A stretch of DNA of 64,000 nt from a virus (IMGVR_UViG_2579778660_000001), one strand, 5' to 3'. Counted from the first letter of the stretch, positions 22,732 through 57,763 are shown. Notes: generated by a model from the sequence alone, not told the origin. Numbers and translations are program-made.

Positions 22732-22935
22732 GCAAACAAAATGAAGTTTTATGTTATAAAAACAATTAACTACATAAACATGATTTAGGCCAAATTTCGG
22801 TTAAAAAATAAAATCCACCAAAAGTGGTTGACACTATTTTGGAAATCACAAACTGCACATAATCCATCGCGCTAACGGCTCCCGTTGAAGGTTCTTTTGA
22901 CGATTAACTTTCAGCCGAAGCGCGGTAGGGAGTCA

Positions 22936-28971: not shown

Positions 28972-29952
28972 GTGGCCCAGGAGTTACAACAATATTTTCT
29001 ACAGTCAGTGCTCATTAACGATAACAAAGTGCCACGAGACTGGATTTTTACCGCAGTATATGTAGAAAAAACCAGCCTCAAAGCCCCTTTGCTAAAACTG
29101 GAAATTCATGACGCTACCGGCACCGTAATTGATGACTGGAAAGCCAAATACGGTGCATCGCTGGTGGCTGAAATGGGCGATCCAAACGGTAATGCAGGCA
29201 CTTTTAAAACAGATTTCTTTGTTACGTCTGCAATGCTGGCTGGTGATGTTGTTACCGTTATTGCTGTCAGTGAAGACGTGCGCAGGTTTAAGATCCCCTC
29301 CCCGCGCACAAATTTACATACCAACAAAACACCAGACGCTATATTCAAGGCATATTCCGGCAAACTTAAAATTACCAGCAGCGTGCTAAAACGCGCAGTT
29401 ACATATCATCTGAATGCTGGTGACAAACCGTCAAAAATGCTTTCGGAGATAGCGCGAGACAAAGGTGCATTGTGTTGGGTATGTCGGGGGGAATTTAACT
29501 TTTACACCCTGGCTGATCTGATGAAGCAAACGCCATCATTTACCTACGAGGGGAATAACCCTAAAGCAGAATACACTTTGTCCAAAATGCGCCTACTCCA
29601 ACAGGAACATGCGACAACAGCAAAGAATCAATATCGTTTTGTTGGGTATTCCATGACCGATGGCTACGTCGAATATGGCGATAGCTCACTCCCAGTGCGT
29701 TATATATCCGACTCTGATATGGAAACTCTTCGCAATATGCAGCTGTCTCTCGTCCCCAAAATGGATATAGAAGTCGCAGGCAATCCTGATATAAAACCGG
29801 GGATGGTAATAGAGATTATCGTATACCGCTATGACCAGGAAAACCGCATTGATGAATCAATGCCCCGTAAGCTGATAGTAAAAAATGTTGCGCACTTTGA
29901 GGACCGCGTAGGCTACACAACACGAATGATATTGGGAGTGCCTAACAAATGA
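28972..29952 (+). CDS. virion/baseplate-module protein (326 aa)
   Basis: GTG start after GGGGTGA. Confidence 0.5.
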   Translation: MAQELQQYFLQSVLINDNKVPRDWIFTAVYVEKTSLKAPLLKLEIHDATGTVIDDWKAKYGASLVAEMGDPNGNAGTFKTDFFVTSAMLAGDVVTVIAVSEDVRRFKIPSPRTNLHTNKTPDAIFKAYSGKLKITSSVLKRAVTYHLNAGDKPSKMLSEIARDKGALCWVCRGEFNFYTLADLMKQTPSFTYEGNNPKAEYTLSKMRLLQQEHATTAKNQYRFVGYSMTDGYVEYGDSSLPVRYISDSDMETLRNMQLSLVPKMDIEVAGNPDIKPGMVIEIIVYRYDQENRIDESMPRKLIVKNVAHFEDRVGYTTRMILGVPNK

Positions 29953-30602
29953 AGCGTAGAGCGCAAATTGTTGGAACTGTGCACCCGGCAGGGCTTATGC
30001 GTGCTCAAGTCCGTGTTTTACCTGACTGGAATGGCGTTCCTGATGACGATCTACCCTGGGCGGAATACCAGTTACCCATCGGGAACGCTTTTGTACCTAC
30101 AGTCAAAGGTGACCTGGTCTGGGTAGAGTTTCCTTATTTAGATGTTAACGGTCGAATAGACACCAGACGCCCAATGATAGTTGGTGCCGCTCAGGATGCG
30201 CCAGGCGGAGTTCCAAACGTCGCGCCGGAGGCGTCAGGCAATGGTAGCGGCTGGACGCCGCCTGAAGTAGACGGAGCGCCTCCCCGCCCGCAATTTTCGG
30301 CGACAAAAGATTTCGTTATTCACCGCAATAATGTGCTAGAAGTGCGAACGGCTGGCGGTGGATATGAAATAGCCAATACGGCAGCAGGTTCAAGGATTGG
30401 CATGAATGAGTCCGGGCAGATATATATCATTGGTCCGGCTGATGTAATCGTGAATGCAGGAGGGAGTGTTAACGTCAAATCAGCCAACAACATCAATGTT
30501 AATGGGGAAAATATTGCTGTCACCGCTAACGGGGACATAGCTTTCAAGGCAGGGGGAACCTTTCAGGCCACTGCTGGCAACTTCGATTTCAAGAAAGGAT
30601 AG
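29949..30602 (+). CDS. baseplate central spike protein (gpV-like)
   Basis: 217 aa; Gly/Asn-rich beta-repeat C-terminus (VIVNAGGSVNVKSANNINVNGENIAVTANGDIAFKAGG). Confidence 0.6.
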   Translation: MKRRAQIVGTVHPAGLMRAQVRVLPDWNGVPDDDLPWAEYQLPIGNAFVPTVKGDLVWVEFPYLDVNGRIDTRRPMIVGAAQDAPGGVPNVAPEASGNGSGWTPPEVDGAPPRPQFSATKDFVIHRNNVLEVRTAGGGYEIANTAAGSRIGMNESGQIYIIGPADVIVNAGGSVNVKSANNINVNGENIAVTANGDIAFKAGGTFQATAGNFDFKKG

Positions 30603-30661: not shown

Positions 30662-31567
30662 ATGAGATCAGTCGCTTTCAAAAATATCTTCATCTATCGT
30701 CTTTCACGCGAAGTTAACTGGGATACCGCAGAAGTAAATGCAGCCCTTAGCAAGTTTGTGTTTACCCCATGCGGTTCTCAGGATATGGCTAAAGCTGGTT
30801 GGACCCCAATTCTTGGCGACAACCTCACCCATGAATACCAGGGTTTTCTTCTGATGCAGCATAAACGAGAGGAAAAAATCCTGCCTTCTCAAGTACTCAA
30901 AGAAGAGTTACAGAAAAAAATCCTGAAACTTGAAGAAGAGCAAGACAGAAAGCTGAAGAAGACCGAAAAAGATTCGCTGAAGGATGAAGTGCTTCACTCT
31001 CTTCTTCCTCGCGCTTTCACGAGAAAATCAGTCGCTAAAATCCTGATAGACCGAAGCAATCATCTGGTTTTTGTCGAGGCCAGCAGTGCTAAAAAAGCAG
31101 AGGATCAGCTGGCTTTGTTACGGAAATCGCTTGGCAGCTTGCCCGTTGTCCCCTTCTCTCCGAAAGACCCATTAGAACTGACCATCACTGGCTGGATTAA
31201 AGATGGCTTCCCGAACGGTTTCCGTGCTGGTGAGGAAGCGACTTTAAAAGCATTGCTTGATGATGGCGGCGCGGTCCGCTGCAAAAAAGTGGACCTGCTA
31301 TCCGACGAGATCATGAGTCATATAGAAGCTGGTAAGGTTGCAACCACAGTTGCGGTTAACTGGCAAGACCGTGCATTTTTCAGACTGAATGACGATATGA
31401 GTATCAAGGCTTTGTCGTTCAGCGACGAATTGTACGACCAAAACGACGATATTGATCGAGAGGATGTAGCGCAACGATTTGACGCTGACTTTATCCTGTT
31501 TACTGCTGAATTATCAGCCATGTTCACTTCGCTAGTGGAGGCCGTTGGTGGTGAAGCAGAACGTTAA
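30662..31567 (+). CDS. rdgC: RdgC-family recombination-associated protein (divergent from host copy)
   Basis: 301 aa; [66 protein letters not shown]. Confidence 0.75.
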
Positions 31568-33839
31568 CCTTAGATATGGTTCTGTTTGCAGTGGAATTGA
31601 AGCAGCGAGCATTGCCTGGGAACCGTTGGGTATGCGTCCGGCGTGGTTTGCTGAAATCGAGCCTTTTCCATCTGCCGTTCTTGCGCACCGCTGGCCCCAT
31701 GTCGCCAACCTTGGCGATATGACAAAACTTGCCAAAAAAGTCCTGGCTGGGGAAATCGAATCCCCTGATGTGCTCGTCGGGGGAACACCTTGTCAGGCAT
31801 TCAGTATCGCGGGATTACGTGGTGGGCTTGATGATGAGCGTGGCGCGCTAACTTTAAAGTATGTGGAGCTTGCAAATGCAATTGACGACAAACGGGCTGA
31901 GTCATTTCTCAAACCAGCCGTTATCGTCTGGGAAAATGTCCCAGGAGTCTTGTCATCGGCAGATAACGCCTTCGGATGTTTCCTTGCCGGATTGGCTGGA
32001 GAAGATGCGCCATTCGAACCAGGTGCTCGACCTGAATCACGAAAAAGTAACGCGTTCTGGCGGTGGGATGTCAAAACCAGTTGCCATGCTCCAAAGTGGC
32101 CGCAGTGTGGTTGTATTTATGGACCGCAGCGAAAAGTGGCCTGGAGAATCCTTGATGCCCAATACTTCGGAGTGGCACAACGACGCCGACGCGTGTTTGT
32201 TGTCGCAAGTGCTCGAACAGACCTCGATCCCGCAACGATACTTTTTGAGTTCGAAGGCGTGCGCCGGAATATTGCGCCGAGCCGAAAAAAGAAGGAAATC
32301 GCTTCCGCCATTATTGCAAATGGCGCTGCAATCAGTGGCGAAAGTCTAAATCCATGCCTACACGCTGACATGCCCCCCGGTATGAAATCGACGAAAGCCG
32401 TAAACGCTTTCAGGATGGCGGCATTTGGGGAATATATTGACGATGAAACCGCATCGACAGTAAAGGCAAGAGACTTTAAAGATGCCACTGACCTTGCCGT
32501 TTTTAGCAGCACAGGAGCAGGTTTTTGGTCAGAGGGGCATGGTACATTGCGGGCGCGTGAGCAAGAAAGCCATGAGCATCTTGTTACATTAGCTTTTCCT
32601 GAGCATATGAGCGGTACACAACATGCTGCAACTAAGAATACTTCACCATCTCTAATGGCTCAAAATCCAACAGCCGTTTGCTATGAAGCAAGAAACGCAA
32701 AAGTAGCTGTTCGCCGTCTTACCCCTGTCGAATGTGAAAGGCTGCAAGGTTTTCCTGATGGGCATACGTTGATCCCTACGGAAAAGCGTAAAACAATTTC
32801 CTCAGATGAACTGGCATACCTTCGCAATCACTATCCAGATTTAAGCGAAGAAGAGGCCGCGATGCTCGCTGCTGACGGGCCGCGTTACAAAGCGATTGGC
32901 AACAGCATGGCAGTTCCTGTTATGCAATGGATTGGGTGTTGCATTCTTGCGACTGTGGAAGCTAAACAGCCAAAAACAATAAATACCATTACCTACACAA
33001 GAATACTCCGGACTCCGGATGAATATGAGCGTCCGATCTTCAAATGGGTAGGAGGTAAATTCTCAGAGTTACCTACAGTGCTTGAGCATCTACCACACGG
33101 CAAGCGGTTAATAGAACCATTCGTTGGTGGCGGTTCCGTATTTACGAATGCAGGATTTCGCCACAACCTGCTTAATGATATTAACGGTGACCTGATTAAC
33201 TTCTATCAGACATTGCAGCGAGAAGGACATTCGCTCGTCACGCTGTCATATAGTTTTTTCCAAAATTACAACAACGCTGACGCTTACCTCGAAGTGCGTG
33301 AGGCATTTAACAGAGGAAAGTATGACCAGCTACATCATGCTGCCGCCTTTTTGTACCTTAATCGGCACTGTTTTAATGGCGTAACGCGGTACAACCAAAA
33401 TGGCGAGTTCAACGTGGGGTATGGCAAATACAAAGCGCCCTACTTCCCACATGCAGAGATGGAGGCATTTTTGGCTGATGACGTACTCAAAAACACGTCC
33501 TTTGTATCAGGTGACTTTGCTGGCGTCATCGAGGCGGCTGGTGAAGGCGATGTGATTTTTTGCGATCCGCCGTATGAACCGCTGCCGGATACAGAAGGGT
33601 TTACCAGTTATTCAGGAAATAGCTTCCGTTTCGACGAACAGAAACGGCTGGTATCTCTATTGGTGGAAGCCCACCAGCGCGGCGCTAAGGTAGTGATTAC
33701 AAATAGTGGTGCGCCAAACATCCGTGAACTATATGAAGGAAACGGGTTTAAAGTACATCATATGGCAGCCAGACGGTCGGTTTCCTGCAAGGCGTCAACA
33801 CGTGTAGTTGCTAACGATATAATTGCAATAATGAAGTAA
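31548..33839 (+). CDS. dmt: bifunctional DNA methyltransferase (N-terminal C5-cytosine MTase + C-terminal Dam-like N6-adenine MTase), P1 Dmt-like
   Basis: [12 protein letters not shown] and ENV in N-half; Dam-like [14 protein letters not shown] and DPPY in C-half; GTG start after GGAGG. Confidence 0.85.
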
Positions 33840-33887: not shown

Positions 33888-35549
33888 TTAACCTAACTTC
33901 GCCCAGGTATCACGCAGCCCAACGGTGCGGTTAAATACCGGTTTTTCCGCCGTAGAATGGCGGCTGTCGAGGCAGAAATAACCTTCACGCTCAAACTGGA
34001 ATGCTTTACCAGCTACCGCTTCTTTCAGCGACGGTTCAGCAAAGCCCTGTTTGATCACCAGCGATTCCGGGTTAATCACCGACAGAAAATCATCCGCAGC
34101 ACCTGGGTTCGGTACACTGAACAGACGGTCGTACAGGCGAATTTCAACCGGCAGCGCATGGGCCGCGCTTACCCAGTGGATAACGCCTTTCACTTTACGA
34201 CCATCTGCCGGATCTTTGCTTAAAGTATCGGCATCGTAGGTACAGAAGATGGTGGTGATATTGCCTTCGGCATCTTTCTCCACGCGTTCAGCCTTAATGA
34301 CGTAAGCATTACGCAGACGCACTTCTTTACCCAGCACCAGACGTTTGTACTGCTTGTTAGCTTCTTCGCGGAAATCGGCGCGGTCGATCCAAATCTCACC
34401 GCTAAACGGCACCTGACGGCTACCCATTTCCGGTTTGTTCGGATGGTTCGGCATGGTGACCATTTCGCCTTCGCCCTGGTAGTTTTCGATAACCAGTTTC
34501 ACCGGATCGATAACCGCCATTGCGCGCGGCGCATTTTCGTTGAGATCTTCACGGATGCAGGATTCCAGCGACGCCATCTCAATGGTGTTGTCCTGCTTGG
34601 TCACGCCGATGCGTTTGCAGAACTCACGAATAGAAGCCGCAGTGTAACCACGACGACGCAGACCGGAAATGGTCGGCATACGCGGGTCATCCCAGCCTTC
34701 AACGTGCTTGTCGGTCACCAGCAGGTTCAGCTTACGCTTGGACATCACAGTGTATTCCAGATTCAGGCGCGAGAATTCGTACTGGCGCGGGTGAACAGGA
34801 ATGGTGATGTTGTCCAGCACCCAGTCGTACAGGCGACGGTTGTCCTGGAACTCAAGCGTACACAGAGAGTGCGTAATACCTTCCAGCGCATCGCTGATGC
34901 AGTGGGTGAAGTCGTACATCGGGTAGATGCACCACTTGTTGCCAGTCTGGTGGTGTTCAGCAAACTTAATGCGGTACAGCACCGGATCGCGCATCACGAT
35001 AAACGGCGACGCCATGTCGATTTTCGCACGCAGGCAGGCTTTACCTTCTTCAAAACCACCGGCACGCATTTTTTCGAACAGCGCCAGGTTCTCTTCAACG
35101 CTGCGATCGCGGTACGGGCTGTTTTTACCCGGCTGCGTCAGGGTGCCGCGGTATTCGCGGATCTGTTCCGGCGTCAGTTCGTCAACATACGCCAGGCCTT
35201 TGTTGATCAGTTCAACAGCATAGGCGTGGAGCTGATCAAAATAATCGGAGGAGTAACGGACGTTACCAGACCAGTGAAAACCTAACCATTCAACGTCGTT
35301 TTTAATCGACTCGACGTACTCGATATCTTCTTTTACCGGGTTAGTGTCGTCGAAACGCAGGTTGCACTGGCCTTTATAGTCCTGGGCGATCCCGAAGTTC
35401 AGGCAGATAGATTTCGCATGACCAATATGCAGATAGCCATTCGGTTCCGGCGGGAAACGGGTATGTACTGTGGTGTGCTTACCACTTGCCAGATCTTCAT
35501 CGATGATCTGACGAATAAAGTTAGTCGGGCGGGCTTCTGCCTCACTCAT
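33888..35549 (-). CDS. glnS: glutaminyl-tRNA synthetase, host-type
   Basis: 553 aa; essentially E. coli GlnS as recalled ([20 protein letters not shown]..., HIGH, VMSKR); higher GC than flanks. Confidence 0.9.
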
Positions 35550-35708
35550 TGTGGATTCCTCAAAGCGTAAAAAACGTATAACAGCGTATGATCTTATAAG
35601 CCGAATAGGCTGACAACCACTAGTTGATTAGAAATTGCTTTCTATCGTTATTTCAATAATGAGCTTTTTCATGAAGCCCACTTTTGCGCATAAGTAAATT
35701 AATGACAA

Positions 35709-35817: not shown

Positions 35818-36105
35818 TTATTTTGCTTCCTCAGACTCCGCTAACATGAGGATAGCATGGCGGATCATATTCAATTTGCTGCGATTATGCTTTTTACTTA
35901 ACGCATCAAGTACCTGGTACTCGTATTCATTGAAACCAACACGAATAGATTTAAAATCACGTGGAGCGTCCTTATCGAGCACTTTGTTGTCTTCTGGTTG
36001 CTCACCCGGCACCAAATCAGCCTTACTTGCAAAATCCTCAATTCGGCGTTCAAGATCGGGGTCTTTTACTTCGGGGGCTTTTACCGATTTACGAGGTTTA
36101 ATCAC
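35818..36105 (-). CDS. ParG-like partition DNA-binding protein
   Basis: 95 aa; directly downstream of and overlapping parA; C-terminal ribbon-helix-helix assumed from size and position. Confidence 0.55.
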   Translation of the reverse strand: MIKPRKSVKAPEVKDPDLERRIEDFASKADLVPGEQPEDNKVLDKDAPRDFKSIRVGFNEYEYQVLDALSKKHNRSKLNMIRHAILMLAESEEAK

Positions 36106-36739
36106 TTAATAACTCCTTAACCAACATCTGGATTTCACCTTTAGCTTTCCCGTTGTCCATCTCAACAACGCCCTTCCCTTCAGCCATGCAATCGCGGTAA
36201 ACCTTACGATCACGAATGATGGTTTTCAGCAACTTCAGTTGCGGATATTCAGCCAGGTACTCTTTGGCCTCATTGGTTTCATTCACAACCGGATTGGATG
36301 GGGCCATTGTTAAGACTGCGAACGCCTTAATGCTAGGATTAGGCATCAGGTCCAAAGCCTCTTCAAACACTTCAACAAAGTGTGCCAGCGTGTCTAAATC
36401 TGGTTGAGATGGTCTGAATGGGACCAACACAATATCTGCAGCGGTTATGCCTGTACGCATCTCTTTGCTATCGCGCCCGGCTGTATCAACAACTACAAAT
36501 TCATAACGCTTATCCAGATCGAGAAGTGTTTCTCGAATATTACCAAACTTCTGGACACAATGAATTACAGGAGAAACCTCTGCCGTGTTACGGTCAGCGG
36601 CCCAGCGGGCAGCTGTTCCTTGCTTGTCTGCATCTAGTAACACTACATCCTTATTTTCGCGGGCAAGCTCCGCACAGATGTTTACGCTTGTGGTTGATTT
36701 TCCACAGCCACCTTTTTGGCTGACTACCAATATAATCAT
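36098..36739 (-). CDS. parA: ParA/ParF-type small partition ATPase
   Basis: 213 aa; deviant Walker A KGGCGKS. Confidence 0.85.
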   Translation of the reverse strand: MIILVVSQKGGCGKSTTSVNICAELARENKDVVLLDADKQGTAARWAADRNTAEVSPVIHCVQKFGNIRETLLDLDKRYEFVVVDTAGRDSKEMRTGITAADIVLVPFRPSQPDLDTLAHFVEVFEEALDLMPNPSIKAFAVLTMAPSNPVVNETNEAKEYLAEYPQLKLLKTIIRDRKVYRDCMAEGKGVVEMDNGKAKGEIQMLVKELLSD

Positions 36740-37026: not shown

Positions 37027-37371
37027 TCAATCAGGTAGAGAGTCAGCCAGATTGCGCGCCGACGCGCTTTTGGCAACAACTTGCTCCTTCACTGGCTCAA
37101 TGGAGGCAGGGCGCTCCTCAACCGCAGCTGGTAGTTCCAGGAAGGATGCCAGCATTTTTCGGATCAGCTCCGGATTATTATCTTCGGTCAGCAGGGAAGC
37201 CAGTAATCCTGGAAGCCTGCTATCGACTTCTCCCAGCGCAAGCCCTGCCAACAATGCGGTTCTTGCCATATCGCTATGTTTTTTTATCTTCTCGCTCGCC
37301 GCCTTTTCATTGGCATAAGCCTCTGGGCGAAGATAAATCATCACTTTCTTACGTTCCTGAGACATGGACAT
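37027..37371 (-). CDS. parR: ParR-like partition adaptor
   Basis: 114 aa, immediately downstream of parM. Confidence 0.55.
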   Translation of the reverse strand: MSMSQERKKVMIYLRPEAYANEKAASEKIKKHSDMARTALLAGLALGEVDSRLPGLLASLLTEDNNPELIRKMLASFLELPAAVEERPASIEPVKEQVVAKSASARNLADSLPD

Positions 37372-37378
37372 TACCTCG

Positions 37379-38359
37379 TTAACCGATTGCTTTCAGGCCA
37401 TGAACAAGAGCAAGTTGCGGGTCATCCGCCACGAAGAAACGGTCATCACGAATATTAACTTGCTCGCGAATTGCATCTGCCACCAGCGGTGCGCCACCAC
37501 CGATCACCATGACATGCGTATATCCTTTAAAGTCGCCAATCACATCAAGAACGCGGGTACGCAGACGGTCAATGCTTGCGGCAATGGCCTTTTTCACATC
37601 ACCAATCGCTGATGGGTCATTGATATTGTCGTTCAGATAATCTTCATCGTGGCGGTTAATAATGAGCTGATCGACATTGTAATTTGACGTTTCGGTATTG
37701 GCCCTTGCAAGTGCTTGCCTTACTTCCCTGGTGACCAGTGATACACCAAGATTCGAATCGCCAAAAACACGGGAAACTGCCGTCATTTGCCCGGCGACCA
37801 TTGAAACATCAAGGGTAGTTCCACCCAAATCGACGATAAGAACAGAATGGGCAGGGTTCAGATTGTCGCACAGGCCAATTCCTGCCGGAATAGACTCCGG
37901 TCGTACCGTAACTTTCTTAATCGTGAACACATTGCCTTTATTCAGCGTGACGGGGCGCATAAGACTGGCTTTCTTGCGCTCGATGTTATCGAGATTGTAT
38001 TGCGCGTCGTCGTCGTAAAACTCCGCCAGAGGCAGCGTGACCACAATTTCTACTTCCTGCGGCTCAATGCCACTTGTCAGCAGGGCATGGTGAACAGCCA
38101 GGACGTTAAGCGGGCTGTATTGCCATTCCACGTTATTCGTCGGCAGAACATCTGGCGAGATCAAATCATACGAATACTTTTCGTCGTCAATGACATAGTT
38201 AAACGGCTTGCCCGCACCAAATGTTGCTGACCATCCGCGCTTAAAGCTGTTAGGGCTGATGTGAGTGCGAGTTTCCCCGTCGTGCTCCCACAGCATTTTG
38301 ATATTGGTTGAACCATCATCGATAAAAATGCGCATCTTCTTGCTCCACTTCTGAGACAC
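37379..38359 (-). CDS. parM: ParM/StbA actin-like partition ATPase
   Basis: MRIFIDDGSTNIKMLWEHDGETRTHISPNSFKRGW... close to R1 ParM/StbA N-terminus as recalled. Confidence 0.8.
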   Translation of the reverse strand: MSQKWSKKMRIFIDDGSTNIKMLWEHDGETRTHISPNSFKRGWSATFGAGKPFNYVIDDEKYSYDLISPDVLPTNNVEWQYSPLNVLAVHHALLTSGIEPQEVEIVVTLPLAEFYDDDAQYNLDNIERKKASLMRPVTLNKGNVFTIKKVTVRPESIPAGIGLCDNLNPAHSVLIVDLGGTTLDVSMVAGQMTAVSRVFGDSNLGVSLVTREVRQALARANTETSNYNVDQLIINRHDEDYLNDNINDPSAIGDVKKAIAASIDRLRTRVLDVIGDFKGYTHVMVIGGGAPLVADAIREQVNIRDDRFFVADDPQLALVHGLKAIG

Positions 38360-38360
38360 A

Positions 38361-38520
38361 TTTGAGAATCATAATGCAATTTTAAAAGAGAAGCCCCCAA
38401 AAATCCACACCAAAAGAGATAAAAAAAGAGTGATTATTGAGTTCATTTTGAGAATACCTTAATCACCCAATGAATTATGGTCTGACAGTGAGATTTATTT
38501 GAGAATGAAGTGAGAATACA
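38361..38520. repeat. parC-like centromere repeats (TGAGAAT units)
   Basis: TTTGAGAAT at 38371, 38447, 38498 and GTGAGAATA at 38510, upstream of parM. Confidence 0.5.
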
Positions 38521-38602
38521 GAAATATTCCGAAATTTAACTCTCAGTTTGAATGATGAAATAACAAAGTGATGACAATAGGAGGATAACCCGGAGGTGAA
38601 GA

Positions 38603-38887
38603 ATGAGCGCAATAGCCACCAGCGACACCCTTTGTTCTGGTCACGGAGGATTTCCGCCGCGACTGGTAGCTGAAACTGTTCCCTGGTTCACCGTTAACGG
38701 TAAGCCAATTGTTGTAGATGGTGCCATGTTTCCCAGTCACACTGACGGTAACAGTGCACATCCAGGGGCAGCTGTATCGACGCGAGTATGGTTTTCGATA
38801 GGTGGAAAGGGAGTTGTCTGTGTAGGCGATCCGCTTTCTTGTGGTTCTGTTATCGCCAACGGCGAGGATATTTTTCAGGTTGCATAA
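38603..38887 (+). CDS. PAAR-like spike-tip protein
   Basis: 94 aa; Gly/Cys pattern (CSGHGG, VNGKPIVVDGAM, GGKGVVCVGDPLSCG). Confidence 0.55.
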   Translation: MSAIATSDTLCSGHGGFPPRLVAETVPWFTVNGKPIVVDGAMFPSHTDGNSAHPGAAVSTRVWFSIGGKGVVCVGDPLSCGSVIANGEDIFQVA

Positions 38888-39690
38888 TGCTTGATTCAAT
38901 AGGTGAAGTTAAAGCCTTCAAAATTCTGTCAGATGCCGGTATCTCTACACCAGAATCTATAACCATAAGCCGGGCAGCGTCTGTAAAAGCCTCATCACTC
39001 GCCAGCGCCATACAGGGAATAGTTCACGCCGATAAAACCTATCCTGATTCTGTTTCGGCCTGGACTACTCAATTGCTTGGCTTTTCTGAACAGCTCAATG
39101 AGGCCAGCAAAGCGTCTTCATTACTGGCTGATTCTCTTTCCCCATACACCAAGCCATCAGAGCTGTTACAGATGAAGATTGGCTGGGAATGCTACGTAAA
39201 AGGTAACGAGCTGACCCCCATACCTGCTTTCGCCCTTGTTGAGGGGATGGGGAATGTTTCCATTCCGCAATCTCTAACGGACGCATTGACGGCGCTAAAA
39301 CTTGATGCTCTGAAAACCGCCATGAACGCCATTAACGCAAAAATAGAAGCTGCTGGAAGTGCTGGTGGTGATAGCAATGGTGGACAGGGTGGTGCTGGGG
39401 GCGCTCAGGCTCCAGTCATTACTCAGGATGAAATTGATGCTCTACGGGAAGCAGTGACAGCCGCCGAAGTTTTACTCTCCGAAATTAACTCAGCAAGTGA
39501 GAGTGTCGTAGCCCTTACAGGTCGCATTAAAACGTCAACCACTCAGGCAACCAAAGGTTTAGAGAACGCTGTCGCCATCACGTTAACTGGTTCTCTACTG
39601 GATGATGCAGTAATGAGTCCGGCAATCAGTTTAATCATGCCACAAGGCGTTATCGATGCGCTCCAAAAGAACACCAAAAAGGAACAATAG
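38887..39690 (+). CDS. hypothetical protein (268 aa), coupled to PAAR-like gene
   Basis: TAATG overlap; helical with Gly-rich linker GSAGGDSNGGQGGAGGAQ. Confidence 0.55.
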   Translation: MLDSIGEVKAFKILSDAGISTPESITISRAASVKASSLASAIQGIVHADKTYPDSVSAWTTQLLGFSEQLNEASKASSLLADSLSPYTKPSELLQMKIGWECYVKGNELTPIPAFALVEGMGNVSIPQSLTDALTALKLDALKTAMNAINAKIEAAGSAGGDSNGGQGGAGGAQAPVITQDEIDALREAVTAAEVLLSEINSASESVVALTGRIKTSTTQATKGLENAVAITLTGSLLDDAVMSPAISLIMPQGVIDALQKNTKKEQ

Positions 39691-39760
39691 CAACACCACT
39701 TAGGAACACAAAAGGATGTAAATTGGTACATGTTTAACACCAATAGTAAACCTGAAGAGG

Positions 39761-40219
39761 ATGGTTTTGAAAAAGATAATTTTGATTGTAATTGCTCTTT
39801 TAGCCATTTCTGGAATTTACCGAACAACGACGGCAGTTATCGAACACATCAGGTATGTCCGATCGCTTGAAGACTCAAAATCACAACTGGAAAGCACGAA
39901 CAACACGCTTTCTACCGCATTACAGTTAAGTGAGAACGCTCGCTCAGCCATGCTGACCGAAAACGAAAGAATTAAAGCACTGGAAAAGGAGTACCAACGC
40001 AAAACAGCAGAACTGAATGCCAACCTAATCAAACAACGGGAGGAAAGCCAGAATGAAATCACTCGTCTTGAAAATGCGTTACGCCGTGCTGGGATTAACG
40101 ATGTACGTGTGCCTGATGACGTTATCAGGATGCAGCGGGAACGGGCAAAAGCCATCAACCAGCGTGCCAGTGAAAATTACCGTAGAAGCCACCAGCAGGC
40201 CGCAGGCAAATCTGATTGA
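39761..40219 (+). CDS. i-spanin (Rz-like)
   Basis: N-terminal TM anchor then coiled coil; contains start of o-spanin in +1 frame. Confidence 0.65.
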   Translation: MVLKKIILIVIALLAISGIYRTTTAVIEHIRYVRSLEDSKSQLESTNNTLSTALQLSENARSAMLTENERIKALEKEYQRKTAELNANLIKQREESQNEITRLENALRRAGINDVRVPDDVIRMQRERAKAINQRASENYRRSHQQAAGKSD

Positions 40220-40385
40220 CTACTCCCCTTGTTTAGTGCCAGAAGACACGCCAGTGCTGTTAAACAAGTATCCGACATACGCTGAACAGTTATTCAGCAC
40301 GATCGACGAATGCAACCAACGAAACGCACTGAATAACCAAAAAAACAGGGAGATTTGGGAAGGGAAGGGGGATCAAGGCTCCTGA
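40053..40385 (+). CDS. o-spanin (Rz1-like lipoprotein)
   Basis: Lipobox LSGC after signal peptide; starts inside i-spanin and extends beyond it. Confidence 0.65.
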   Translation: MKSLVLKMRYAVLGLTMYVCLMTLSGCSGNGQKPSTSVPVKITVEATSRPQANLIDYSPCLVPEDTPVLLNKYPTYAEQLFSTIDECNQRNALNNQKNREIWEGKGDQGS

Positions 40386-40831
40386 AGCCAGATGTCCTGG
40401 CTGTCAGCTTCTTCGAAACCGTGACAGACGTTAAAGTCACTCAAACGATACTGACGCTGACGGCCCCTATTTCGCTCATGCCAATGCATATATCCACCAG
40501 CAAATGCCAGCGGACAATCGCTATAGTCTATGTAACCAATACCATTCCCCAAACGTGCTTCGCGCGCACCAGCTTTCCAGGACAGTAGAAAAGAGTCACG
40601 ATCCGCCAGCATAACAACAAAATCGTCCGGTTCTCCGATACAGTGAAGAATACCTGCCTTACATAACTGCTTGAGCGCTTTTGACTGGCTCAGGATGTCT
40701 TCTCCGTAATACTGAAAACAATCATCAACAACAGCGGGATAGCCTGTCGGGGGATTCAGGCTGGTTGGTATAGCTGACGCGATCGCCAGCATTAAGCGAT
40801 ATTGTGTTTTTGAGGGGTTAACGTGACTCAT
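40373..40831 (-). CDS. hypothetical protein (152 aa)
   Basis: Second gene of operator-controlled leftward pair. Confidence 0.5.
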   Translation of the reverse strand: MSHVNPSKTQYRLMLAIASAIPTSLNPPTGYPAVVDDCFQYYGEDILSQSKALKQLCKAGILHCIGEPDDFVVMLADRDSFLLSWKAGAREARLGNGIGYIDYSDCPLAFAGGYMHWHERNRGRQRQYRLSDFNVCHGFEEADSQDIWLQEP

Positions 40832-55105: not shown

Positions 55106-55480
55106 ATGCTTTACGAAATAGACGCAAGACTTCAAACGAATGAGAGCGGTGTCATTATTGCAGAAGGAAGTACCGCAGCATGGATGGCCCGACTTGACGA
55201 GTGGCTACGAACCCCTGAAGGGAGTGTTTATGGTTTACCCTCCTGGGGGAGTCCAATGGAAGAATTTAAGCACGAACCATTCGGTTCTGAAACTTCGCAT
55301 ATAGTTGAAGTGGCTATCGAAGGGAGAATGATGACAAAACTACGACAAGACCTACCCGGTTTAGATGTTCAGGGGATTCGCTGTACATCCATTTCTGAAG
55401 ATTCTTTATTAATCAGTTTTTATGCGAAAGGTGGGAGCATGGATATTGTTATGCAGAAATCAAGCGAGGTGGGTGCGTGA
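55106..55480 (+). CDS. putative baseplate wedge protein (gp25/W-like)
   Basis: 124 aa directly after tape-measure-like gene. Confidence 0.45.
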   Translation: MLYEIDARLQTNESGVIIAEGSTAAWMARLDEWLRTPEGSVYGLPSWGSPMEEFKHEPFGSETSHIVEVAIEGRMMTKLRQDLPGLDVQGIRCTSISEDSLLISFYAKGGSMDIVMQKSSEVGA

Positions 55481-56907
55481 CGATTACCGAATTACTCGAC
55501 AAATTTAATACCAAGCTGAATGAAAATTCCTGGTGGTCACGGTTTGTAAACAGTCAGTTTGTACAGATGCAGGCGGTGTTCGGTGCGCAGGTGATTTATA
55601 TTGCACGTACATTTGCAAGTCGTGCTCTGACCGAGGGATTTATTTCAACTGCCACACGGAGAGCAAGCATTTTAGCGGGAGCTGAAGACCGCAGTTACGT
55701 CGGGAGATTTGTGAGTGCTTCATACGGAACAACTTCGATAACGAATAAAACAGATCGGGATGTAACGCTGCCTGCAGGAGCTGAGTTGCTTGCCAGCGAC
55801 CAAACGCCACTTGCAATTATTAACAGTGTTGTTGTTCCAGCCGGGGGGACTGTACACGGTGTCGAAACCAAACAGCATGAAGCTGTGAGCGTGGCATTTG
55901 ATATTGAAAAAGAAACCCCCTTTCTTACGCTGTTGCTTTCCAGGGAACTGACAAAAGAAGTGTCCAGCCTCGATGTTACTGTGATTATTAATGGTGCAGA
56001 AGAGAAATGGACCTACAACCCATTATTTCGAATGTCAAGGGACAAGAGCAAACACTATGTATTGGCATATAAGCCAACGGAACAACTTGGCGTTAAATTT
56101 GGCGATGGTTCTATGGGGATGATGCCGCCAGCTGGGTGCCAGGTGCGAATTGATGTAATGGCAAGCCTCGGTGACTACACTTTGGCTGAAGGTCAAAAGT
56201 TAGAACCTGCTGGAAATATTGCGCAATATGTGGAGTCACTGGAATTTAAAACCGATTCGATTATTACCGGAGGCGGTGGAATGGAAACCACAGAAGAAAC
56301 CCGAAACCGTGCACAGTATTATGTTGCCTACGATGAACAAGTCGTATGGGGAGGTGATTATCGTCAATTCATTCAGAACGCGGTACACGGTACGTCATGG
56401 CTTAACGTTTGGGGTGAAGCGTTACAAGAAAAAATAACCGGATTTGATGTGCGCAACATCAATAAGATTTTCTTTTGTGGGCATAAGCCGGGCGTAAGCC
56501 AGGAACAATTAAAGTCAGAAATACTTAAAGCCCTGGAGAATGTGCCCAATGAATTGAACAAGCGGTTCGAATATGTGGACACAAATGAACAGCCATTTAC
56601 TATAAATTTCACAGGTATTGCACGTAAAAACGTTCTGATAGATGACGCCAAAAACACCATTAGAAAGGCGTTAGAGGATAATTTTGGTCGTGATTCATCT
56701 TCATTTAGTTTGTTGTTACAGAGTGATGATGATTCCCAGCAATGCTATGCGCAGGTAAAAGTTAAAGATATTTGGCGTGTTATAGAGTCACTGGATATGT
56801 TTCTCTCTTACGATATTACAACACAGAATATGAAGGATGCTGTTTACTTCAATGACTTTATTTATCTTGACGTAAATTCATCTGTATTCAATATTTCCTA
56901 TCCGTAA
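55477..56907 (+). CDS. putative baseplate J-like protein
   Basis: 476 aa; GTGA overlap with upstream gene. Confidence 0.5.
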   Translation: MTITELLDKFNTKLNENSWWSRFVNSQFVQMQAVFGAQVIYIARTFASRALTEGFISTATRRASILAGAEDRSYVGRFVSASYGTTSITNKTDRDVTLPAGAELLASDQTPLAIINSVVVPAGGTVHGVETKQHEAVSVAFDIEKETPFLTLLLSRELTKEVSSLDVTVIINGAEEKWTYNPLFRMSRDKSKHYVLAYKPTEQLGVKFGDGSMGMMPPAGCQVRIDVMASLGDYTLAEGQKLEPAGNIAQYVESLEFKTDSIITGGGGMETTEETRNRAQYYVAYDEQVVWGGDYRQFIQNAVHGTSWLNVWGEALQEKITGFDVRNINKIFFCGHKPGVSQEQLKSEILKALENVPNELNKRFEYVDTNEQPFTINFTGIARKNVLIDDAKNTIRKALEDNFGRDSSSFSLLLQSDDDSQQCYAQVKVKDIWRVIESLDMFLSYDITTQNMKDAVYFNDFIYLDVNSSVFNISYP

Positions 56908-56917
56908 TGAGGCTGAA

Positions 56918-57763
56918 ATGAAAGAGAATTGGTTTAAGGAGCGGTTAACTAAAGCAAAACAGGATTCTAAGCTCTGGAGCGCCTTTATAGGCGCTTTACA
57001 TGACGTCTGGGATGAAGCTGTAGAACCAATATTAACAAGAATAAGTAACAGAAAATCCTTCTTCACTATGGACAGTGAGGATATGGATGCCCGCATTGCT
57101 GAATACGGGCGTTTTTTCGTTATCACTGAAAAAGATAAGGCCCGTAGGCCAATGCTTCTGGCACAACGTTTAGATGAAGTGCACTTTAAAGGCACTATCC
57201 TGCCTATTGAGCAGACATTCTGGCGTGAATTCGGTTGTATTCCTGTAAGTTGGGAACCGCTGTATGCTCCTGTAAATTTAGAAAAACACCCCTATGGTTC
57301 ATATTTTGCGACCGAAATAGAGATACCTACAGCACAGTCTCAATTCGGTGAGTTCTTCCTGACATCAAGGGGGCTGGTCGTTGTTGATCAGAACAAGCTA
57401 TATCGCTCATATGGAGAGCAGGATCGAGAAGCTGCTGTGCAGAAATTGTTATCTGACTTCGAAACAGTAATAGCCCCATTGTTGCCATTGCATATTGTTT
57501 TTGATGGCGCCTCGTTTCGGCTTAGTGCAGTATTCCCTGAAGTGGCAGAAATACTAAATTGCTTGTCTACGGATATTTCGGTAATTGAAGGTGTTTATGT
57601 TACTGAGAGTATGGCTGATATGCTATCCCATAGTGATACCTCCAGCCAGGTAGACAATATTCCTCTTAACGCCATACCGAACCGAACGGCAGAAAAGCAA
57701 TTACATCTTGATGTAACCCCACTCGATGCGTGGCCTTTGGATTACCACCTTCAACCTGTTTAA
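56918..57763 (+). CDS. putative baseplate/tail-fibre attachment protein
   Basis: 281 aa between baseplate and fibre genes. Confidence 0.4.
   Translation: MKENWFKERLTKAKQDSKLWSAFIGALHDVWDEAVEPILTRISNRKSFFTMDSEDMDARIAEYGRFFVITEKDKARRPMLLAQRLDEVHFKGTILPIEQTFWREFGCIPVSWEPLYAPVNLEKHPYGSYFATEIEIPTAQSQFGEFFLTSRGLVVVDQNKLYRSYGEQDREAAVQKLLSDFETVIAPLLPLHIVFDGASFRLSAVFPEVAEILNCLSTDISVIEGVYVTESMADMLSHSDTSSQVDNIPLNAIPNRTAEKQLHLDVTPLDAWPLDYHLQPV

Follow-up and report, generated by a model that had tools for sequence, protein, structure and literature searches.

In phage P1, a cryo-EM study published in 2026 placed UpfC as a monomeric tip on the trimeric gp5 spike and assigned an extra density at this tip to UpfB, described as a 'three trimeric tripod' (PLoS Pathog; PMC12810830). 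The assignment of UpfB was based on a medium-resolution map combined with an AlphaFold3 fit; UpfB itself could not be resolved (PMC12810830). That paper contains neither a mutant nor a mass-spectrometry confirmation of the UpfB tripod, and the PDB contains no UpfB chain. A later paper (Viruses 2026) counts three UpfB copies in the tripod, not three trimers, and regards the role of the tripod as unclear. UpfB goes unmentioned in the main text of the 2022 proteome paper on P1 virions, also among the proteins detected by LC-MS/MS, and UpfC, gp5 and gp26 were also missed by LC-MS/MS in the same study. Deletions as well as CRISPRi knock-downs of P1 upfB and upfC left plaquing unaffected, marking both genes as non-essential. 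The late genes of the P1 family are scattered over many transcription units, and P1 late promoters are described to contain an inverted repeat of 9 bp to which Lpa binds.

Beyond the P1 family, a separate tip protein is expected for spikes devoid of an HxH apex, and the T4 tip protein gp5.4 makes a difference only on hosts whose LPS is truncated (PMC12407873). A possible complex of T4 gp5.1 and gp5.4 is an AlphaFold3 suggestion only (Viruses 2026).

We analyzed a 64,000-nt stretch of viral DNA, termed the window, which is 96.9% identical at the nucleotide level to D6, an Escherichia phage and P1-family plasmid prophage, and colinear with it over its whole length in reversed orientation. Based on this match, the window is a D6-like P1-family phage-plasmid. 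It contains a gene for a PAAR protein followed by the gene of a partner protein (Table 1), and the two are labeled 'similar to P1 gene upfC' and 'similar to P1 gene upfB' in the D6 record. The pair is thus already known, through this annotation in D6 and through the role described for P1 in 2026. With a probability of roughly 0.75, we read the pair as D6-lineage orthologs of upfC and upfB that make up the far end of the device with which the tail pierces membranes. From the present analysis, this reading draws on orthology, gene linkage, fold class, the absence of catalytic domains and purifying selection, while the P1 literature contributes the density attributed to the tripod and the spike-bound position of UpfC.

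Table 1 Features of the window around the PAAR–partner gene pair, with the tail and accessory genes referred to in the text.
Feature	Position	Strand	Remarks
Gene 6 ortholog, baseplate hub	28972-29952	+	D6 orf67 'similar to P1 gene 6'
Gene 5 ortholog, trimeric central spike	29949-30602	+	PDB 9vzk 'Gp5', E 2.4e-54; D6 orf66 'similar to P1 gene 5'
Methyltransferase ORF	31545-33839	+	764 aa
Stretch without D6 counterpart	31567-33009		
Glutaminyl-tRNA synthetase gene	~33889-35551	-	full-length; mapped from D6 orf62, annotated GlnS-like in D6
Small ParA	36098-36739	-	upstream of PAAR gene
StbB-type partner of ParM	37027-37371	-	upstream of PAAR gene
ParM/StbA	37379-38359	-	upstream of PAAR gene, divergent
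Four direct repeats (TGAGnnnnnTTTGAGAAT)	38352-38517		~18 nt each
Late-promoter-like box AAATAACAAAGTGA, then -10-like hexamer GACAAT	38558-38578	+	~45 nt upstream of PAAR start
Shine-Dalgarno GGAGGTG of PAAR gene	38592-38598	+	4 nt before ATG at 38603, read from sequence
PAAR protein gene, upfC ortholog	38603-38887	+	94 aa
Chi octamer within PAAR gene	38616-38623	-	
TAATG stop/start overlap	38885-38889	+	TAA 38885-38887, ATG 38887-38889, one A common
Partner gene, upfB ortholog	38887-39690	+	267 aa
Chi octamer within partner gene	39361-39368	+	
Rz-like inner-membrane spanin	39761-40219	+	PHROG_214, PHROG_89 'Rz-like spanin'; N-terminal TM segment
Rz1-like outer-membrane lipoprotein spanin	40053-40385	+	PHROG_456 'Rz-like spanin'; weak Pfam O_Spanin_T7 match; LSGC lipobox-like motif
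Wedge genes pmgA, bplA, gene 16	55106-57763		

The PAAR protein shares 56% sequence identity with the equally long P1 UpfC. It matches the PDB chain 9vyi_A 'UpfC' with an E value of 1.8e-35 and T4 gp5.4 (5iv5) with 1.8e-5, and it falls into PHROG_281 (E 1.3e-28), in agreement with the initial annotation of a PAAR-like spike tip. Its score of 26.4 bits against Pfam PAAR_motif (PF05488) lies 0.6 bit below the 27-bit gathering cut-off, and the 33.7 bits obtained with NCBIfam T6SS_PAAR lie far below the cut-off of 124, indicating a phage-type tip protein and not one of the T6SS type. The residues C11, H14, H46, H53, C73 and C80, every one of them conserved in P1 UpfC, are candidate apex metal ligands by sequence. 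The HxH apex motif is absent from the gp5 sequence encoded in the window, so that a separate tip protein would be expected here following the rule given for such spikes (PMC12407873). Judged from these comparisons, the orthology of the first gene, as the D6-lineage counterpart of P1 upfC, is essentially certain.

The partner protein itself was recognized correctly at the outset, whereas its length of 268 aa had included the stop codon and amounts to 267 aa. Alignment with P1 UpfB yielded 27% identity over 262 aa, full length and colinear (pairwise E 2e-24), and the partner belongs to PHROG_1559, a family of unknown function, with an E value of 4.9e-111 and the entire profile covered. A tblastn search with UpfB against 2.3 Gb of phage DNA returned P1/D6-type phages only (E 5e-7). 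For this second gene as well, the similarity makes orthology to P1 upfB, within the D6 lineage, essentially certain. In a profile search of 1.84 billion representative proteins the partner family comprised 73 clusters, the complete members of which measure 240–265 aa and are all single-domain proteins, with none fused. Conservation within the partner peaks at the amino terminus and at residues 91–100 (LLQMKIGW), 141–150 and 221–260, and is lowest in a flexible linker at residues ~157–175 that is rich in Gly in the window, in Gly and Ser in P1, and in Pro in the Vibrionaceae branch. Two of the family alignments (A2, A4) were too divergent for pattern scans. An in-frame ATG further upstream, at 38788, would extend the partner to 300 aa. 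We discarded this reading since all sequences of the D6-lineage alignment begin with MLD at the stop overlap, M1 and L2 hardly vary in the wider family, and D6 is annotated with the same overlap start.

Structure prediction of the partner, as suggested in the initial annotation, resulted in a confident all-helical fold. The AlphaFold2 monomer model, calculated from a 15-sequence alignment, reached a pLDDT of 82.7 and a pTM of 0.75 and comprises ten helices, with residues 160–172 of the Gly-rich linker predicted to be disordered and residues 180–238 predicted to form one continuous helix of 59 residues. A Foldseek search of BFVD with this model gave as top matches DUF7217 proteins of Arnovirus Wc4, Serratia phage 3M and Kuttervirus FEC14, all of them unrelated myoviruses, at a probability of 1.0, TM values of 0.41–0.54 and E values of 5e-3 to 2e-2. 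None of 52 partner-family members matched the Pfam profile of DUF7217 at E values up to 1, we found no mention of DUF7217 in the literature, and a search of the first 50 kb of Kuttervirus CBA120 with the UpfB HMM gave no hit. A CBA120 gene pair coding for 95 and 248 aa seemed promising but was rejected for having no PAAR or other Pfam match. The resemblance of the modeled fold to DUF7217 is probably a generic helical likeness.

The initial annotation had further proposed that the partner could be a co-injected protein, to be searched for toxin or enzymatic domains. An injected effector delivered by the PAAR tip, whether toxic, enzymatic or pore-forming in membranes, could be expected from the effectors that T6SS PAAR proteins carry (PMC12407873), and a location at the tip would put UpfB into the periplasm after contraction. 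Against this stands that the partner gave no sequence match in Pfam, NCBIfam or the PDB, and hence no catalytic or toxin domain in these searches, and that it is an acidic (pI 4.6), soluble protein in whose sequence no transmembrane or hydrophobic segment, signal peptide or lipobox was found. Furthermore, no immunity-like gene adjoins the partner gene, the following two genes being the Rz/Rz1-like spanins, and the uniform size and unfused single-domain layout hold for 73/73 family representatives. Taken together, an injected effector appears highly improbable, and the term 'co-injected protein' is acceptable only in the sense of a tip-borne structural protein that enters with the spike. The initial annotation would have abandoned its proposal for an ordinary structural partner whose PAAR protein is missing from virions; the partner indeed looks structural, whereas P1 virions do contain the PAAR protein (PDB 9vyi).

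The surroundings of the pair were described correctly from the start, with ParM, the StbB-type protein and ParA of the partition module on one side and the Rz/Rz1 lysis genes on the other. The lysis genes adjoining the pair are spanins only, the start of Rz1 lying within Rz in a different frame, and the holin genes of D6 are located elsewhere in the D6 genome. Both spanin genes carry the label 'hypothetical protein' in D6, and the equivalent positions of P1 are given as Rz and Rz1 in one P1 record.

To describe the gene order across relatives we used a set of 38 P1/D6-type loci, comprising 36 D6-lineage loci from IMG/VR, P1 and Cronobacter phage JK004. The PAAR gene lies directly upstream of the UpfB gene in 38/38 of these loci, and the spanin pair directly downstream of it likewise in all 38. 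For the most distant family members, those with the Pro-rich linker, tblastn against phages and a related-locus search of viral, genome and metagenome contigs found no context, and a PLSDB search placed them on non-mobilizable Vibrio and Photobacterium plasmids of 80–140 kb. Both Vibrio alginolyticus plasmids (2/2) show the order gp24-hub-spike-PAAR-UpfB on one strand and unbroken, followed by endolysin and major capsid genes, where the endolysin gene (amidase or GH108 type) is found ~0.5–0.6 kb downstream of UpfB, past one small ORF. The same run is present in two Photobacterium plasmids, with two genes inserted between PAAR and UpfB, so that the PAAR gene directly precedes UpfB in 40 of the 42 related loci (38 P1/D6-type, two Vibrio, two Photobacterium), the exceptions being those from Photobacterium. 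The gene 6 product of the window is 27–28% identical to the product of the gene preceding the spike gene in the Vibrio and Photobacterium plasmids. The ancestral backbone is therefore hub-spike-tip-tripod-lysis-capsid.

For one of the two exceptions, the plasmid NZ_CP100427 of Photobacterium sp. CCB-ST2H9 (locus L042), the PAAR gene was identified at locus positions 2667–2948, directly following the spike gene. It is omitted from the PLSDB gene table, and its product is 43% identical to that of the window. In this locus, the products of the two genes between PAAR and UpfB are a protein of 167 aa, which contains a lysozyme-like GLMQ motif, and a hydrophobic protein of 113 aa; Pfam gave no match for either.

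This gene order also bears on whether UpfB could be a member of the lysis cassette, for instance a spanin or endolysin accessory, that is linked to the PAAR gene by historical accident. Such a role would fit the direct succession of Rz/Rz1 in every P1/D6-type locus, the endolysin genes shortly behind UpfB in both Vibrio plasmids, and the L042 arrangement, in which the lysozyme-like and the small hydrophobic protein genes split PAAR from UpfB and thereby leave UpfB on the lysis/capsid side. What remains constant, however, is the other neighbor: all loci examined have the PAAR gene ahead of UpfB, and the type of the downstream lysis gene varies. A lysis accessory would moreover have to be reconciled with a protein free of signal peptide, transmembrane segment and lipobox, with the tip density assigned to UpfB in P1, and with the knock-down and deletion of P1 upfB, which show neither a plaque nor a lysis defect. 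We thus regard a lysis function of UpfB as very unlikely.

The initial annotation had also stressed the distance of the pair from the baseplate genes. The distances as such were accurate: the gene for the gpV-like spike, gene 5, lies 8.0 kb upstream of the pair, and the wedge genes are 16.5 kb away from the PAAR start and 15.4 kb from the end of the partner gene, the originally noted more than 16 kb being right within ~1 kb. As a sign of a special function, the distance does not hold up. The unbroken hub-spike-PAAR-UpfB run of the Vibrio plasmids points to an ancestral spike operon, and the distance of the pair in the window reflects inserted cargo, as the 'remote' position is explained by ~8 kb of accessory genes (hrdC, a methyltransferase gene, glnS and the partition genes) that separate the tip gene from gene 5.

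Within this interval, the methyltransferase ORF combines a PCQ motif of the C5 type with a DPPY motif of the N6 type; D6 has two separate methyltransferase genes at the place where the window carries a stretch without D6 counterpart. The glutaminyl-tRNA synthetase gene sits between the methyltransferase and the partition genes.

At the junction of the two genes the TAATG overlap could be read directly. The partner ATG is preceded by AGG at −10 to −8 only, with no strong Shine-Dalgarno sequence. A TAATG or TGATG junction is found in 35/36 of the D6-lineage loci, and the P1 lineage has instead of the overlap a spacer of 8–9 nt with AGGAG. The tight genetic linkage noted initially was thus borne out, and from the overlap and the poor ribosome-binding site we infer that translation of UpfB is tied to that of upfC.

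Upstream of the PAAR gene, the late-promoter-like box is one of several in the window: near-identical boxes sharing AAATMACAAASTG, each followed by a −10-like hexamer after a gap of 2–3 nt, precede mat (box at 22843), upfC (38558), gene 23 (41329) and gene R (57799), all on the plus strand. The box is also kept ~45 nt before the PAAR start in diverged loci. The AAATMACAAASTG boxes are probably Lpa-dependent late promoters of the D6-like element, in line with the Lpa-bound inverted repeat described for P1, and the one preceding the pair is a probable P1-type Lpa-dependent promoter of an upfC-upfB(-Rz-Rz1) operon, from which the pair would be expressed late. A scan of positions 38300–40500 for sigma-70 promoters and terminators revealed nothing above chance, and no terminator-like site was found between the end of UpfB (39690) and the start of Rz (39761); Rz is probably co-transcribed with the pair. 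The divergent parM/PAAR intergenic region that holds the late-promoter-like box also contains the four direct TGAGnnnnnTTTGAGAAT repeats, a candidate parC-type centromere and binding array for ParR(StbB).

Close genetic coupling to the PAAR gene would equally be expected of a dedicated chaperone. UpfB might accordingly act as a cytoplasmic chaperone or adaptor outside the virion, folding the PAAR protein or mounting it on the gp5 spike while the baseplate assembles, and then being discarded, by analogy to the PAAR/VgrG cargo adaptors of T6SS. Such a chaperone would accommodate that the proteome paper on P1 virions is silent on UpfB in its main text, that UpfB lacks an atomic model within the virion, and that it is, like UpfC, non-essential. 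The absence from the proteome is weak evidence, however, since UpfC, gp5 and gp26 escaped detection too, and the P1 cryo-EM tip does show extra density that is fitted by a UpfB trimer model. UpfB is also, at 27 kDa and with its long helix and flexible linker, larger than typical small chaperones, and Pfam gave no similarity to the DUF4123 or DUF1795 adaptors. We therefore consider a discarded chaperone quite unlikely. Chaperone, injected effector and lysis accessory are all less likely than a spike tip with an attached tripod.

For the tip with its tripod, the following picture would emerge. UpfC would be a single-copy PAAR cone capping the blunt β-helix of the gp5 spike trimer. UpfB, predicted to be a soluble helical protein with an amino-terminal bundle, a flexible Gly-rich linker and a long carboxy-terminal helix, would oligomerize and, by homology with P1, attach to the faces of the PAAR cone as the 'tripod'. 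Both genes would be read from the P1-type late promoter on one mRNA probably continuing into Rz/Rz1, with the TAATG overlap and the poor upfB Shine-Dalgarno sequence tying UpfB synthesis to upfC translation. Upon infection, sheath contraction would drive spike, tip and tripod into the outer membrane and the periplasm, where the tripod, dispensable for laboratory plaques, most likely helps the phage to penetrate the envelopes of particular hosts or modulates this step.

Several points weigh against this picture. The UpfB tripod of P1 stands on medium-resolution density and an AlphaFold3 fit with no PDB chain, and the D6-type UpfB is just 27% identical to the P1 protein. Since neither upfB nor upfC is needed for plaque formation, entry is not linked to them by any phenotype. 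The two genes separating PAAR and UpfB in the two Photobacterium plasmids show that the coupling is not universal, and a PAAR:UpfB ratio of 1:3 or 1:9 is a poor fit to reinitiation-type coupling from a weak ribosome-binding site. From one tentative cryo-EM assignment and the synteny found here, we infer that UpfB is likely the tripod in the D6 lineage as well, along with the role that the tripod would play there.

Both ORFs are real genes and not chance ORFs, as evidenced by their dN/dS values and by the partner family of 73 representative clusters. Compared with diverged relatives, dN/dS is ~0.05 for the PAAR gene and 0.15–0.19, about threefold higher, for the partner gene, indicating purifying selection on both. 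The divergences of PAAR and UpfB track each other across loci (Spearman 0.90). Between the window and loci L021–L024, UpfB has dropped to 59% amino acid identity, with ParM at 94%, PAAR at 88% and Rz at 86%, making UpfB a local divergence hot spot between otherwise close D6-like plasmids. This divergence suggests either allele exchange or relaxed or diversifying selection on a tip-attached protein. Because UpfB is such a hot spot, has a dN/dS ~3 times that of the PAAR gene and finds an analogy in T4 gp5.4, it might even be an exchangeable, fast-evolving tip cap that tunes which envelopes P1-family phage-plasmids can penetrate; we put this forward only tentatively and deem it doubtful. If true, UpfB would be a second host-range determinant beside the tail fibers.

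Chi octamers (GCTGGTGG) are abundant in the window, with 36 copies compared to 1.8 expected from shuffles. Two copies lie inside the pair, one of them within the region coding for the Gly-rich linker of the partner.

To the published description, our analysis adds that PAAR and UpfB are paired in every sampled P1/D6-type locus, extending to Vibrionaceae phage-plasmids, that the ancestral hub-spike-tip-tripod layout independently supports the tentative cryo-EM placing of UpfB on the tip, and that UpfB evolves faster than its neighbors.

Compared with the known systems, the pair resembles T6SS PAAR proteins in that a PAAR fold sharpens a trimeric spike and an adjacent gene encodes a partner carried on the tip. 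In contrast to these systems, the setting is a phage tail with no T6SS genes nearby, the partner comes without toxin domain or immunity gene, and the PAAR protein stays far below the NCBIfam T6SS_PAAR cut-off. T4 gp5.4 is closer, being likewise a single-domain PAAR cone of ~95 aa that is related in sequence (5iv5, 4ku0), caps a gp5-type β-helical spike without HxH apex and is dispensable for plaques. Differences to T4 are the lysozyme domain of its gp5, which the P1/D6 gp5 does not have, and the absence of a UpfB homolog, the tblastn search with UpfB having returned P1/D6-type phages only. Closest is P1 itself. Here, the UpfB sequences have diverged to 27% identity, the window shows TAATG without a strong Shine-Dalgarno sequence where P1 has an 8-nt spacer with AGGAG, and the flanking module is ParM/StbB and ParA upstream in the window as opposed to repA/parAB downstream in P1. 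Common to both are the order upfC, upfB and spanin pair, the UpfC length of 94 aa and UpfB lengths of 262–267 aa, the UpfB layout of an amino-terminal domain, a low-complexity linker and carboxy-terminal helices with shared motifs such as LLQ..IGW, and the position of the pair next to plasmid-maintenance genes of a P1-family phage-plasmid.
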